Position numbers and translations under genes: made by a program | The notes under the pieces: model-generated | The model's input: the letters and a program-made list of their open reading frames with translations, nothing else | What the model was told of the DNA's origin: nothing | The model's database searches: none | DNA from: an uncultured Acidobacteriota bacterium | Lineage (GTDB): Bacteria > Acidobacteriota > Thermoanaerobaculia > UBA5066 > Gp7-AA6 | DNA: 64,000 nucleotides | Assembly: GCA_963739435.1 (NCBI GenBank) | Contig: CAVUAN010000005.1 | Span: 41,609-105,608, forward strand | Direction: 5' to 3' | Shown here: one piece after another, positions 44,411 through 51,123 of the stretch | Position numbering within the stretch: the first letter of the stretch is position 1 | Layout: each line of letters starts with the position of its first letter

Positions 44411-45346
44411 TTACTGATTGGGAGGCTTGGGCTGGCTCGCCGCGTCCGCTGCCCCCGGGAAGGACGGCTGTGAGGCCGCCGGGGCTGCGTACAGAGTTCC
44501 CAGGCCGTAGGGTGTCGGGGCGGGCGGCGGAGGCTGGTTGGACGTCCCTGAAGCCGCCGTGCCGGCTGAAGCCGGGCCCGCTGCAGCCGTCTTCGCCGCA
44601 GCCGCGGCCGCAGCGGTTTCCGCTGCCGAAGCCGGCGGGGGCGCCGCGACCCACTGCGGCGAGAAGCGGAAAGCGGCGACGATCTTGTCTCCGACGGGGA
44701 TGGCGGCCGTGAAGGCGACCGTCTCGGAAGGCTCGAGGCTCCCCTTGGACAGGGACGCCTCGGCGGTGCCGAGCATCTCGCCGTTCTCGTCCAAGGCCGT
44801 GACGGACATCCGGGCATTGTTGGCCGCGGTGCCGCCGAAATTGCGCAGCGAGCCGCGCATGAGCACGTTGACGCCCGACTTCGTCTGGTCGTAGCCTGCC
44901 ACGTCGAGCCGCGCGGCTCCCTTGCCCGTTTCGCCCTTCTTGTCCCCTGATGTCTGGCCGTAGGCCAGCGCCTGGACCGTCTCATGCGAGACGTCCGCAT
45001 CGGTCAGTTTCACTTTCGCCTTTGGACCTTCCTTGCCCTGGCGCAATGCCTCGGCTGGCGTCTGGGGCGGAGCCACGGCGGCGGGCTCCGGCGCGGGGAC
45101 GGCCTTCTTTGCGGCCGAGGTCGCCTTCAGGTCGATCTCCGAGACGGGGACGGAGAGAACCGTGCCGTCGGGGCGGGTCAGGATGGCATTGCTGCCCTGC
45201 TGCACCCACGGCCCCTTGAGGTCGATCCTCGAGCCGCCCTTCAGCACGACGACGTCGGAAGCCGTTGCCAGGGCCGTCGGCAGCAGCAGAGCGAGCAGGA
45301 AGCCAGCCAGCCCGAAACCGAGGCCGACAGCCCTCCGCGGCCTCAC
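44411..45346 (-). CDS. Secreted FxLYD-domain-like protein
   Basis: Signal peptide; RGSLRNFG.......[12 protein letters not shown].......[13 protein letters not shown] overlap with the pilY1 stop. Confidence 0.7.
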
Positions 45347-48300: not shown

Positions 48301-51123
48301 GTAGACGACGATGTGGTTGCGGCAGTTGATGGACGGATCGTCGAGCTCCTGGAAGACCGTGTTCTTGAAGTAGTTGTACGCGTCCTTGAGAACGCCGGCC
48401 ACCGGCGTGCCTGGCGACGTGACGACGACGTCGTTGGCGTCCTCGGCCAGCGAGTATTCATTCATGTGCGGCTGCGTCGAGTCGTAGTTCACGATCGAGG
48501 AGGAGAACCGGAGCAGCCGCTTGATCGCGGGCACGCTCGGGGCATCGCCCGGGATCCAGTCGCGCGGCAGCGGGATGACCGGCCAATCGCCGACACTCGG
48601 CGGCGGCAGCGATGGATAGGGGATGTAGCCCGCGGGCGCCTTGGTGGCGAAGTGCGCCATGCCGCCGCAGTCCGCCGTATAGACGTCGCAGAATCCCGGC
48701 AGGCCGGGGCAGGAGGGCTCGGCGAAGGCGTCGTTGGGGAACTGCTGGGCGAACTGGTCGGGCCGGCCGAGCACGAAGTTGAACGTATCCAGCTCGAAGA
48801 TCGCGGAGTACGCGCCCTGGTTGTGCCGATCGGTCAGCGGCGAGGGGTCGATGACGCCGTCGGCATCCATGTCAGCCGGCGGCTGCGAGCCCCACGGCGG
48901 ATTGCCGGTCAGCGTGTCGTCGGCGAAGTACGTGCCCAGCCCGCCTCCCAGGTCGAAGAGGTCTCCACGCGTAAAGTGGATTTGCAGGGTCTGCAGGTGC
49001 ACGCCTCCCGGGGTCGGGTCCGCCTGCGGGTCGTCAAACCCGCGGTAGGGCAGGTCGAACGGCTTGTAGATCGGATCGCCGAAGCCGTCGTCCAGGAACG
49101 TGCAGAGCTTGTTCGGGTCCCATCCGCACTGGCCGCAGAGCAGCGGCCCCCACACACCCATGGTGGTGAAGGTTCCCTGCATGTTCGCCAGGCCCGGGCA
49201 TGGGATGGCCGGAGGAGGCAGCGGCGGAGGCGGAGGCGCCATCGCGAGGATTCCGCGCACAGCCGGAGCCATCCAGGCTGCCACTGCCGGCAGGGCGCTG
49301 GCGGCCGGCAACTGGCCGTGAGAGAGCGTGGGCGGGGGCGGGCTCGGCGTGGACGTCGGGCGCGGCGTCCGGGTCGGCGTGTTCGTCTTCGAGGCAGTGA
49401 AGGTCGGCGTGAACGAGGGCGTCGAGGTCGGCGTGTTCGACGCCGTGAACGTGCTCGTGAAGGTCGACGTAAAGGTGTTGGTGGGAGTCGCGGTATTCGA
49501 CGGCGTGAACGTGCGCGTCGGCGTGTTCGACGATGTGAAGGTGTTCGTGGCGGTGAACGTGTTCGTCGCCGTGAAGCTCGCGGTGAAGGTCGAGGTCGGC
49601 GTCGGCGTCGACGAGGCGGTCGACGTATTCGTGAAGGTGTTCGTCGGGGTGAAGGTGAAAGTCCTCGTTGCCGAACCCGTCCGAGTCGGAGTCGGCGACA
49701 GCGATGGCGTCAACGTGTTCGTCCGCGTCGGTGTGATCGAGGGCGTCAGCGTGTTCGTGCGGGTGTTCGTGCGGGTGGACGTTGCAGTCTGGGTGAACGT
49801 GCGCGTAGCCGTGTGCGTGTTCGTGATCGACGGCGTGAACGAGGTCGTCGGTGTCGGCGTCGGAGGTAGCGGCGTCGGCGTGATCGAGGGCGTCGGCGTG
49901 ATCGACGGCGTCTGCGTGATCGTGAACGTCAGCGTGTTCGTCGGTGTGTTCGAGAATGTGAATGTCGCCGTCGGCGAGGCCGGTGTCGACGTGAAGGTAC
50001 GCGTCGGCCGCGGCGTGTCGGTGACCGTGAACGTCCGGCTGGCCGTGAAAGTCGGCGTGAAGGTGTTCGAGGCCGTGAACGTGTTCGAGGCCGTGAACGT
50101 GGCCGTCGGCGTGTTCGTCTTGGTCGGCGTGTTCGAGGCCGTGAACGTCGGCGTAAAGGTCGGCGTGTTCGAGGCCGTGAAGCTCGGGGTCGGAGAGCTC
50201 GTGAACGTCTGCGTCGGCGTGAACGTGTTCGACGCGGTAAACGTCGGCGTGAAGGTCGGCGTGTTCGAAGGCGTCGGCGTCTGTGTGGGAGGCGGCGCGT
50301 ACTCGTCGACCTGCACGATGATCGTGGGGTCGCCGTAGTTGCCGGAGACGACCTGGAGCTGCAGCTCGTAGCCCGGCTTGTTGGGGTTGCGGTAGACGAC
50401 GATGCCCTGGCCGGCCCCCGCCGCAAAGAGACCCTTGGGGCCGAACGCGCCCCGGAACTCGCCGGCAGGCGGCTCGGGAGAGACCGAAACACCTGCGGGC
50501 GCCGAATACGGCGGGCGAATGTCGGCAACCTCGCCCGTGTCTGTCCGGTTGTACGGGCGCGGCACCTTGTGGCCGAACTGCAGGAAGCGTCCCTGCTGGA
50601 CGTCGGGATATTCGGTCGGGTTCAACAGGGAGGAAACGTCGTCGTTGGCGAAGTACAACCATTCGAGGCCGCCGTTTTCGAGAAGCTGCCCCGTTGTTTT
50701 CGCTCCACCGACGGCCGAGCCACCGAAGCCCGTGTCGGCAGCGCCGAACGTCTGGTTCGGGTTGCGGTAGTAAGCAAAGCCCCAGTTGACGCCGCGGGCC
50801 GTCGTCATGACCTGCCGCAAGACGCTCTTGGACAGGCCGAGCTTGGAGCCCACGGCCGAGAACGTCCCCTGCGGGTAGAGGAAGTCGTCCATGTAGGCCG
50901 GCAGGTTGAAGCGGTCCGAGAAATCTGACGTCATCGAGTGCGACGAGTCGAGGATGAGCAGGACGTTCGTGTTCGCACCCGCGTTGGCGCGCAGGAGCTG
51001 CCGGTCATCGGGTGTGGCGGGCTGGGCAATGAGGAACACGAGCAGCATCGAAACCGCCACGCGGTGGCGTGTCGCGAACCCGATCAGGATGCCGGAGCGC
51101 CGGCTCGGTGTGCTCGTCGTCAT
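45343..51123 (-). CDS. pilY1: PilY1/PilC-like type IV pilus tip adhesin (~1926 aa) with vWA domain and Thr-rich insertion
   Basis: [10 protein letters not shown] (MIDAS), [71 protein letters not shown]-terminus. Confidence 0.9.
49330..50285 (-). repeat. Coding low-complexity (T/S-x)n repeat inside pilY1
   Basis: [23 protein letters not shown]... ~320 aa; many near-identical DNA units such as gtgttcgaggccgtgaac. Confidence 0.95.

Follow-up and report, generated by a model that had tools for sequence, protein, structure and literature searches.

The window analysed here, a stretch of 64,000 nucleotides from an uncultured Acidobacteriota bacterium, carries on its minus strand a gene for a giant PilY1, a type IV pilus protein. 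In this PilY1, a tract of ~320 residues with threonine or serine at every second position lies between the two parts of a putative vWA adhesion domain and its metal-ion-dependent adhesion site (MIDAS). The open reading frame (ORF) spans 45343..51375, and translation from an in-frame ATG at 51123 yields a protein of 1926 residues, labelled P0001; other P and G numbers denote proteins and genomes of relatives. We observed a Pfam match to the PilY1 propeller family PF05567 at residues 1323-1483 (E 8e-21; 74.8 bits against a cut-off of 28.1), together with a second matching stretch, and no Pfam family besides PF05567 scored above threshold in the whole protein. When a profile of PilY1 homologues was compared with the PDB, it matched 3HX6 (E 2.3e-50). 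The NCBIfam equivalog for Neisseria PilC scored 26.8 bits against a cut-off of 350, so P0001 is not a PilC equivalog.

The genetic setting is that of a pilus-tip protein gene. pilY1 forms the end of a fimT/gspH-pilV-pilW-pilX operon, in which the minor pilin genes lie directly upstream on the same strand and the pilY1 start ATG is 4 nt past the pilX stop codon. This minor-pilin gene order is kept in relatives, and pilX is syntenic in related loci. The genome is 87% complete; pilY1 is its sole PF05567 locus, and it also encodes five PilT-family genes above cut-off and two secretins. The identification of the protein as PilY1, a pilus-tip protein, is well supported because it draws on the PF05567 match, the minor-pilin operon, the single PF05567 locus and the presence of PilT-family ATPases and secretins; the giant PilY1 of the original prediction is borne out. 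The protein is likely to be this bacterium's type IV pilus tip adhesin and assembly primer.

The features of the gene and its surroundings are collected in Table 1. Behind the signal-peptide-like region, the presumed start of the mature protein, DDRQLL at residues 39-44, is conserved, and P38-L43 are invariant in seven orthologues. In the C-terminal propeller, residues D1642, D1645, D1646, G1647 and D1650 of the EF-hand-like loop are invariant in orthologues, and an FG-GAP match covers residues 1635-1652. The propeller of P. aeruginosa PilY1 has a calcium-binding Asp loop. The ordinary Pro/Thr linker at residues 1102-1142 has a counterpart of 25-46 residues in orthologues.

Table 1 Features of pilY1 and neighbouring genes in the window, with residue numbers referring to P0001
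Feature	Nucleotides	Strand	Basis
pilY1 coding sequence, 1926 residues plus stop codon	45343..51123	(-)	ORF and translation; PF05567; orthologues 52-61% identical
Signal-peptide-like region, residues 1-36	51016..51123	(-)	Basic residues, then hydrophobic stretch (mean Kyte-Doolittle 2.18)
Putative vWA N-piece, residues 37-165, with MIDAS DxSxS (D59, S61, S63)	50629..51015 (DxSxS 50935-50949)	(-)	Invariance; hhalign; BLASTP
Pre-tract piece A of older insert, residues 166-277, ending in a conserved strand-like segment	50293..50628	(-)	Conservation in orthologues
(x-Thr/Ser)n tract, residues 278-600	49324..50292	(-)	Composition; phase; shuffle test; orthologues
Conserved hydrophobic segment, residues 611-629, then poly-Pro, residues 630-641	49201..49323	(-)	Conserved in all orthologues
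Post-tract piece B, residues 642-863, Cys-rich	48535..49200	(-)	Invariant columns
Putative vWA C-piece, residues 864-1045, with MIDAS T906 and D944	47989..48534 (T906 48406-48408; D944 48292-48294)	(-)	hhalign
Second Pro/Thr linker, residues 1102-1142, past the vWA region	47698..47820	(-)	T/S/P run scan
C-terminal PilY1 propeller, residues 1323-1926	45346..47157	(-)	PF05567; 3HX6 profile match
EF-hand-like loop DYNDDGYLD in propeller, residues 1642-1650	46174-46200	(-)	Motif
pilX	51128-51691	(-)	Pfam PilX_N
pilW	51682-53091	(-)	Pfam PilW
pilV-like pilin gene	53088-53645	(-)	Pfam N_methyl
gspH/fimT-like pilin gene	53636-54235	(-)	Pfam GspH, N_methyl
Candidate YfhO-domain GT-C membrane glycosyltransferase gene, runs off window end	61626..63998	(-)	Pfam YfhO (E 4.9e-9, above cut-off)

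The alternating threonine/serine tract

The tract is composed of 40% Thr, 16% Pro, 12% Ser, 10% Phe and 7% Asn, with Thr, Ser and Pro together making up 67%. It is a long Ser/Thr/Pro-rich low-complexity region on an exported-looking protein with a signal-peptide-like N-terminus. Threonine or serine occupies every second position from about residue 281 to 375, the other phase is used for ~45 residues, and the first phase returns at ~428-590; the two phase shifts, near residues 376 and 425, are the only ones. We found that 292 of 312 tract residues fall inside perfect (x-[T/S]) runs that are 12 or more dipeptides long. Shuffling the tract 10,000 times with its composition preserved gave a maximum of 60 residues in such runs, and 292 was never reached. 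The Thr/Ser/Pro tract of about 320 residues claimed in the original prediction is thereby confirmed, and its translation contains the units TFTASN and TPTFTP. Its span had been put at 49330-50285, which has the right place and is refined in Table 1.

By autocorrelation, the tract has a period of 2 only, lags 4-16 being alike at 0.35-0.43; no clear period appeared among the x positions (those between the Thr/Ser residues) taken alone, and no longer lag was preferred. Proline takes 39 and phenylalanine 31 of the 152 x positions, and the tract lacks conserved Gly or Cys residues that could mark turns or a core. At the DNA level, Tandem Repeats Finder reported short arrays only, copies within the tract are 60-78% alike, and threonine is encoded by ACG (85), ACC (28), ACT (7) and ACA (7). 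The tract is real, far beyond chance, and maintained as protein, not as a clean DNA repeat.

A scan of the genome for other long (x-T/S) runs returned five further ORFs, with a longest run of 84 residues compared to 294 in PilY1. Two of these ORFs hold short 24-residue runs and are not gene-like. In the three convincing cases, two secreted-looking proteins have the run as their C-terminal tail, and in a protein of 929 residues it links domains, which is ordinary linker or stalk use. Outside the window, at C5:174086-175081 (-) and C22:138499-139257 (-), lie genes for two paralogous secreted-looking proteins with a Thr/Pro-rich tail, an N-terminal domain of ~130 residues and a common C-terminal motif ...GGS.QPR.VP.R.PV.

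Position of the tract between two putative vWA pieces

The motifs on which an insertion into a vWA domain had been predicted are present where they were said to be: LDSSHSM at residues 58-64 on one side of the tract, and GTPVAG at 905-910 and VVYLTDG at 939-945 on the other. The five MIDAS residues D59, S61, S63, T906 and D944 are invariant in seven orthologues. Across 16 distant tract-less homologues, the first three positions hold D, S and S in 16/16 each, the fourth holds T in 14/16 and S in 2/16, and the fifth holds D in 16/16.

The tract-less relatives P0078, P0079 and P0080 (1249-1254 residues; 32-33% identical to P0001) allow the two sides to be aligned. In BLASTP, residues 39-270 of P0001 aligned with 24-235 of P0078 (2e-14) and residues 865-1925 with 339-1254 (2e-141). 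P0078-80, P0087, P0090 and P0092 score above the PF00092 cut-off. In P0080, positions 63-167 of the Pfam VWA profile matched residues 364-468 (E 7e-9), and positions 1-36 of the VWA_2 profile matched residues 38-85 weakly (E 0.09). Taken with P0079, the VWA matches cover profile positions 63/81-167/170 at residues 364/383-468/473, with E values of 7e-9 and 2e-7. Within one tract-less protein, P0080, the vWA profile is broken by ~280 residues.

Profile comparisons extend this arrangement to P0001. With hhalign, the C-piece aligned with residues 336-487 of P0080 (probability 99.1%, E 5e-19) and the N-piece with the VWA_2-matching start of P0104 (probability 92.9%, E 3.6e-7). A profile of the 16 tract-less homologues matched the I-domains of integrin alpha-X and alpha-M in the PDB (E 1.8e-4 to 7e-3) and also S. 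sanguinis PilB (7B7P, E 0.011), these matches covering the half from beta4 to the C-terminus only. The ESM-Atlas clusters nearest to residues 855-1060 carry VWA with a score of 0.94.

These data suggest that the two pieces, residues 37-165 and 864-1045, form one vWA/MIDAS unit, probably a single fold. The tract would be nested in the vWA region because the flanking pieces jointly hold the five MIDAS residues, and because tract-less homologues match Pfam VWA in two parts and integrin I-domains as well. The predicted order, with the DxSxS part first, the T...D part last and the tract, poly-Pro stretch and Cys-rich segment in between, is upheld by MIDAS co-conservation, the two-part VWA matches and hhalign. 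As for the predicted insertion into vWA, the position holds and the history needs refinement: tract-less relatives are already split by ~280 residues, and the tract sits inside this older insert.

The remainder of the older insert is recognizable on both sides of the tract. Piece A aligns with residues ~120-235 of P0078 and its conserved strand ends in ...VQVDEY. After the tract, the conserved hydrophobic segment (mean Kyte-Doolittle 1.29) ends in A-M-A before the poly-Pro stretch. Piece B has invariant cysteines at 642, 663, 666, 674, 805 and 819, and further cysteines are at 812, 934, 949, 954 and 1013. Separate Pfam scans of residues 601-870, 160-277 and 866-1110 at E<=10 returned nothing. 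Piece B also contains a DxDxDGxxD motif, DMDADGVID, at residues 751-759 (nt 48847-48873, minus strand), with invariant Asp and Gly positions, which may be a calcium site.

Conservation and replacement of the tract among relatives

The original prediction had pointed to homologues for comparing the presence and length of the tract. In the window's own taxonomic family (f1, Thermoanaerobaculia-like Acidobacteriota), a tract of 196-379 residues is present in 30/30 orthologues with a readable N-terminal half, spread over at least eight genera. This count includes the unpublished genome G011 and becomes 29/29 without it; it leaves out the cut or broken loci of G004, G013 and G019 and six further matches with short open frames. 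The N-piece was found in 36 of the 301 genomes of a class-wide sample, namely in the window's own genome, in 34 of the 43 others in f1 and in one of four in family f3. The f3 case, in the unpublished genome G030, is 36% identical and tract-less. No N-piece was found in the other 19 families of this sample, nor in any of the five genomes of genus g11 within f1. An exhaustive search with the N-piece among 1.84 billion representatives returned 43 relatives only; many were short fragments, and no distant relative was gained. Named relatives of P0001 carry the labels Thermoanaerobaculia or Acidobacteriota.

Pairs of orthologues show what is kept within the tract. Between G023 and G017, the Thr/Ser positions are 91.9% identical (137/149), and 49.6% of those are codon-identical, compared to 58.3% identity at x positions (77/132) and 87.9% in the rest of the protein (1361/1548). 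Between G023 and P0014, identity is 95.1% at Thr/Ser positions, 83.9% at x positions and 95.8% elsewhere, with one indel of 6 residues. Evolution at the x positions is ~3-4 times faster than elsewhere in the protein. The four tract indels between G023 and G017 measure 32, 2, 16 and 6 residues; all are even-numbered, and the phase of the alternation is therefore kept. The chemistry of the x positions differs among relatives, being Arg-rich in many, acidic in P0068 and Phe/Asn-rich in P0001. By these alignments, it is the alternating hydroxyl residues, and not those between them, that are under selection. The suggestion that tract length may vary by slippage stands in part: length does vary, in even steps, whereas slippage as the cause is only weakly supported. 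DNA copies that are 60-78% alike are a poor substrate for it, so rapid slippage is unlikely.

The tract site is delimited by a conserved segment ending in [Y/W/F] before it and a conserved P-C-P-G after it, and what lies between these anchors varies widely. Long-tract forms have 224-397 residues there, P0001 having ~366. In P0063 and P0069, the same two flanks are joined by 19 residues. P0041 has 88 residues including a short Thr/Pro stretch, P0070 and P0068 have 139-168 (P0068 being an acidic Pro/Thr variant), P0031 and P0050 have an unrelated ~225 residues without Thr bias, and P0072 has a long mixed insert. Where tested, the contents of this hotspot in P0031/P0050, P0063/P0069 and P0072 gave no Pfam identification. 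A hydrophobic segment of the LPAIANWLSPAIRGLLAMA type and poly-Pro follow every tract except in the mixed P0072, and they are absent in tract-less forms, being missing from both P0063/P0069 and P0031/P0050. P0063 and P0069 have an extra piece of ~100 residues after CxxC. A CBM5/12-like identity for a piece in these two proteins was considered and rejected, with no Pfam support at E<=0.5 in P0063, the one tested.

As the 19-residue variants demonstrate, the flanks can do without the tract, in keeping with a loop that exits a folded body and returns to it. Rooted with P0078-80, a FastTree of the C-terminal part places the tract-less and short forms inside the clade of tract-bearing proteins; support values are SH-like (Shimodaira-Hasegawa-like) only, and long-branch joining was flagged at the root. 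On the simplest reading, the tract cassette would be ancestral to the clade and would later have been shortened, lost or replaced at least two to three times. The tract thus appears as an excursion at a hypervariable hotspot and not as a structural core.

Among the first 16 genomes, four (G005, G014, G015 and G024) have the orthologous pilY1 spread over two or three frames, and the break sites differ; these copies either contain sequencing errors or are decaying. For this family, the databases contain about 40 gene calls whose start is a Met past the tract, just ahead of the hydrophobic segment. Whether the many resulting proteins of ~1340 residues reflect a gene that is split in nature, with a signal peptide inside it, was considered and rejected, as the frame breaks fall at differing sites in four genomes and the Met at that site is in frame within full-length ORFs. 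The ~1340-residue proteins are more likely truncated gene calls or sequencing errors.

Neighbouring genes and interpretation of the tract

Downstream of pilY1, a gene at 44411..45346 (-) encodes a secreted-looking protein of 311 residues with an FxLYD domain (NCBIfam NF038353, E 1.5e-7), its start overlapping the pilY1 stop. An FxLYD gene is found downstream of pilY1 in 25 related loci, and its product may be a conserved partner of PilY1. Beyond it lies a sigma-54 response regulator gene (43009-44367, minus strand). On the other side, two PilT-family ATPase genes (55879-57968, plus strand) adjoin the minor-pilin operon and are followed by a histidine kinase gene (57973-58980, minus strand). 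Further away, at 2476-7383 (-), a gene for a multi-haem cytochrome c of 1006 residues adjoins split cytochrome b genes; this is unrelated to the tract.

The pilin region also holds candidate glycosylation genes. The YfhO-like gene at the window end encodes a polytopic membrane protein that matches the C-terminal part of YfhO only, and its weak matches to the S. mutans PgfM1 and PgfM2 models are far below the cut-offs. It directly follows two pilin genes (N_methyl plus T2SSG) on the same strand (L033:3043-4086, just outside the window), and this order, pilins and then the YfhO-like gene, recurs in 5/5 other genomes tested, with a gap of 1.9 kb in the one that belongs to family f3. In this genome, the YfhO-like gene is 10.5 kb from pilY1; the distance is 6-10.5 kb in 11 of the 12 genomes with both genes on one contig (one of the 11 being the unpublished G011) and 2 Mb in G001. 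Within 15 kb of the YfhO-like gene lie a GT2-methyltransferase fusion gene, a gene for a 278-residue GT2 and an STT3/AglB-like oligosaccharyltransferase gene. A polytopic protein of 792 residues without a family match is also encoded near the pilin and YfhO-like genes (L033:738-17281). Together with the YfhO-like gene, all of these genes at the pilin locus look like a protein-glycosylation island. Excerpts of PMC12041528 describe YfhO-family GT-C enzymes (PgtC2, PgfM1) that O-glycosylate extracytoplasmic Ser/Thr-rich disordered regions in streptococci, and excerpts of a preprint describe TfpW as glycosylating P. aeruginosa pilins (bioRxiv 10.1101/2020.04.19.049825). This literature and the pilin-linked YfhO-like gene make periplasmic O-glycosylation of pilus parts plausible, with the PilY1 tract as a possible substrate.

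The mechanism that we consider best supported, with a probability of about 0.5, is that the tract is a flexible vWA loop at the pilus tip, possibly an O-glycosylated, mucin-like brush. The adhesive head would be a vWA/MIDAS domain assembled from residues 37-165, with DxSxS, and residues 864-1045, with T906 and D944, with the insert between them. After the ...VQVDEY strand, the lineage would have acquired a cassette of the ~320-residue (x-Thr/Ser)n tract, the hydrophobic segment and poly-proline. Most likely, the tract lacks a fixed fold and would stick out from the head as a hydrophilic loop, extended or disordered. At ~0.35 nm per residue, its 323 residues would have a calculated contour of ~110-120 nm, so that a closed loop reaches at most about half of this. 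The Thr/Ser residues would most likely be O-glycosylated in the periplasm, with the GT-C enzymes encoded beside the pilin genes as candidates, and the glycosylated loop would act as a mucin-like brush, serving to shield or hydrate the tip or to lend it weak multivalent stickiness. Disorder, glycosylation and function of the tract are each put forward here as presumed properties.

Several observations weigh against this interpretation. Regarding the vWA head, P0001 has no Pfam VWA match, either as a whole (E<=1) or in pieces (E<=10), shallow orthologue profiles of the N-piece and the C-piece gave chance-level PDB matches only, the ESM Atlas returned nothing usable for the N-piece (residues 36-277), and the N-terminal VWA_2 matches of P0079 and P0080 are below threshold (E 0.09-0.24); the packing of both pieces into one vWA domain is argued from sequence alone. 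Regarding the tract, phenylalanine at 31 of the 152 x positions is unusual for a mucin-like region, and the natural loss of the tract in P0063 and P0069 means that it is not essential to the protein. Regarding glycosylation, the YfhO-like gene is present in 24/24 f1 genomes tested, even in genus g11, for which the search revealed no tract-bearing PilY1; families f2 and f3 have the gene as well. Its distribution does not track the tract, and the pilins alone may be what its product naturally modifies. Matches to the PMT, PMT_2 and Wzy_C families occur in 6-9 of 14 control genomes too, which makes their counts uninformative.

An alternative, which we hold to be unlikely, is that the tract is low-complexity filler, tolerated at a permissive surface loop, retained because it is harmless and without a function of its own. 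The hotspot accepts between 19 and ~400 residues of unrelated content, the tract was lost or replaced at least twice within the clade, and the x positions change at three to four times the pace of the remaining protein. The orthologues in two or more frames (4/16) point the same way, as some copies may be decaying, or their frame breaks may be assembly errors. However, filler does not account for the retention of 196-379 residues in all 30 readable orthologues of at least eight genera, for Thr/Ser positions that stay 92-95% identical though half of their codons have changed synonymously, for indels that are without exception even-numbered and keep the phase, or for the conserved hydrophobic-plus-poly-Pro segment that always accompanies the tract.

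The original prediction also offered a TxT beta-solenoid, and more generally the tract could be a regular beta-rich body (a TxT-faced solenoid or stacked hairpins) whose Thr face binds mineral, ice or polysaccharide. Strict alternation would indeed set Thr/Ser on one face of a strand and Phe, Pro, Asn and Ala on the other, a compact fold would let 320 residues start and end at neighbouring points of the domain, and tract length is confined to 196-379 residues. TxT ice-binding beta-solenoids of insects and bacteria combine alternating Thr with coils of fixed length, are poor in proline and have a conserved core or disulfides. A fixed coil, little Pro and a conserved core are not seen in the tract: beyond the period of 2, lags 4-16 show no preferred coil length, Pro makes up 16% of the tract and takes 39/152 x positions, and conserved Gly or Cys turn or core positions are missing. 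Moreover, no part of the protein evolves faster than the x positions (58-84% identity compared to 88-96% for the rest), their chemistry ranges from Arg-rich in many relatives to acidic in P0068, and indels of 2, 6, 16 and 32 residues fit no fixed repeat. An extended or disordered chain is favoured over a solenoid because of the lack of a period above 2, the 16% Pro, the fast and free x positions and the irregular indels. The solenoid is thus disfavoured, and a beta-rich body of any kind seems improbable to us.

Even less probable is a force-released, hidden-length tether in a split vWA domain that would serve as a mechanical fuse or force sensor at the pilus tip. Here, retraction load would part beta1-3 with DxSxS from beta4-6 with T...D, open the MIDAS and release or switch the ligand; the glycosylated chain of ~110 nm would be paid out, and the halves would re-dock via the hydrophobic/poly-Pro segment. 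The tract does lie between the two MIDAS-bearing pieces, the conserved post-tract hydrophobic segment could be a docking element, and PilY1 is load-bearing and mechanosensitive and unfolds stepwise under force, as excerpts of PMC11891296 describe for its C-terminal part only. On the other side, tract-less relatives are split in the same way around other inserts, no load falls on a loop that lies outside the force path, and the conservation of Thr in particular is left unexplained. Finally, an assembly artefact, that is a collapsed or expanded repeat, is hardly credible: no public run containing the stretch was found (none had more than 0.08 of the sampled words, and four soil runs gave contig fragments of ~150 nt, none spanning the tract), but the reading frame is continuous, the flanks are conserved, the DNA with copies 60-78% alike is not a clean repeat, and 30/30 independently assembled orthologues have a tract similar in length, several of their assemblies being of only 2-6 contigs.

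Comparison with known systems places the proposed flexible, possibly glycosylated loop among other elaborations of pilus adhesins. P. aeruginosa PilY1 (3HX6) and M. xanthus PilY1.3 have the same C-terminal propeller, EF-hand-like Asp loop and position at the end of a minor-pilin operon; according to excerpts of PMC9109919, both have a vWA domain, and N-terminal domains vary. P. aeruginosa PilY1 has 1161 residues in the construct numbering excerpted from PMC11891296, and the window's PilY1 is ~1.7 times longer. Unlike these two proteins, P0001 has its vWA pieces ~700 residues apart and contains the ~320-residue (x-Thr/Ser)n tract. ComC of Acinetobacter baumannii, a PilY1 homologue, likewise has a lineage-specific vWA insertion in a type IV pilus tip adhesin (PMC10374093). 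However, the ComC finger is folded, Tyr-rich and ~90 residues long, whereas the insert described here combines a low-complexity Thr tract with a hydrophobic and poly-Pro segment within an older insert. PilB of S. sanguinis and RrgA of S. pneumoniae are also pilus vWA adhesins, with a MIDAS ringed by inserted protrusions in the excerpted account of PMC8179133; their arms are short and folded, and PilB is a pilin fusion and not a PilY1.

Glycosylated counterparts can be compared in the same way. The substrates of PgtC2 and PgfM1, including S. mutans Cnm, likewise have Ser/Thr-rich low-complexity surface regions in the excerpts of PMC12041528, and a YfhO GT-C gene is nearby here. Published YfhO-enzyme substrates are Gram-positive proteins with terminal tails or stalks, whereas the tract would be an intradomain loop. 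Cellulase linkers are likewise Pro/Thr-rich and are described as glycosylated connectors in excerpts of PMC3490864. They join two domains and are tens of residues long, in contrast to an alternating, Phe/Asn-rich tract of ~320 residues within a domain. The TfpW preprint presents this enzyme as a large polytopic membrane glycosyltransferase tied to type IV pilins, and the pilins-then-YfhO-like order in 6/6 genomes here recalls that link. The known substrate of TfpW is the major pilin (group IV, P. aeruginosa), not PilY1, and the YfhO-like gene is likened to TfpW by role. The two pilin genes lie directly before the YfhO-like gene in this genome. The tfpW gene likewise lies directly after pilA.

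Full-text literature searches found no paper on a Thr-rich tract in PilY1. Insertions in vWA heads, MIDAS-flanking arms, variable PilY1 N-termini and force-dependent PilY1 are already known; the conserved alternating-Thr loop would be a further vWA-head insertion of a new sort. The head of PilY1 determines the targets to which a type IV pilus adheres and the way in which the cell perceives contact, and vWA insertions are known to alter function, the ComC finger of Acinetobacter being an example. One soil and sediment Acidobacteriota family has long kept an alternating-Thr loop of 200-380 residues at this site, with pilin-linked GT-C genes close by. With ~40 database gene calls beginning just after the tract, the adhesive N-piece is often missing from annotations. 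If glycosylated, the tract would, as far as literature searches show, be a mucin-like brush without reported precedent on the pilus-tip adhesin of a diderm, and it would offer a convenient natural substrate for periplasmic YfhO-type O-glycosylation outside Firmicutes.

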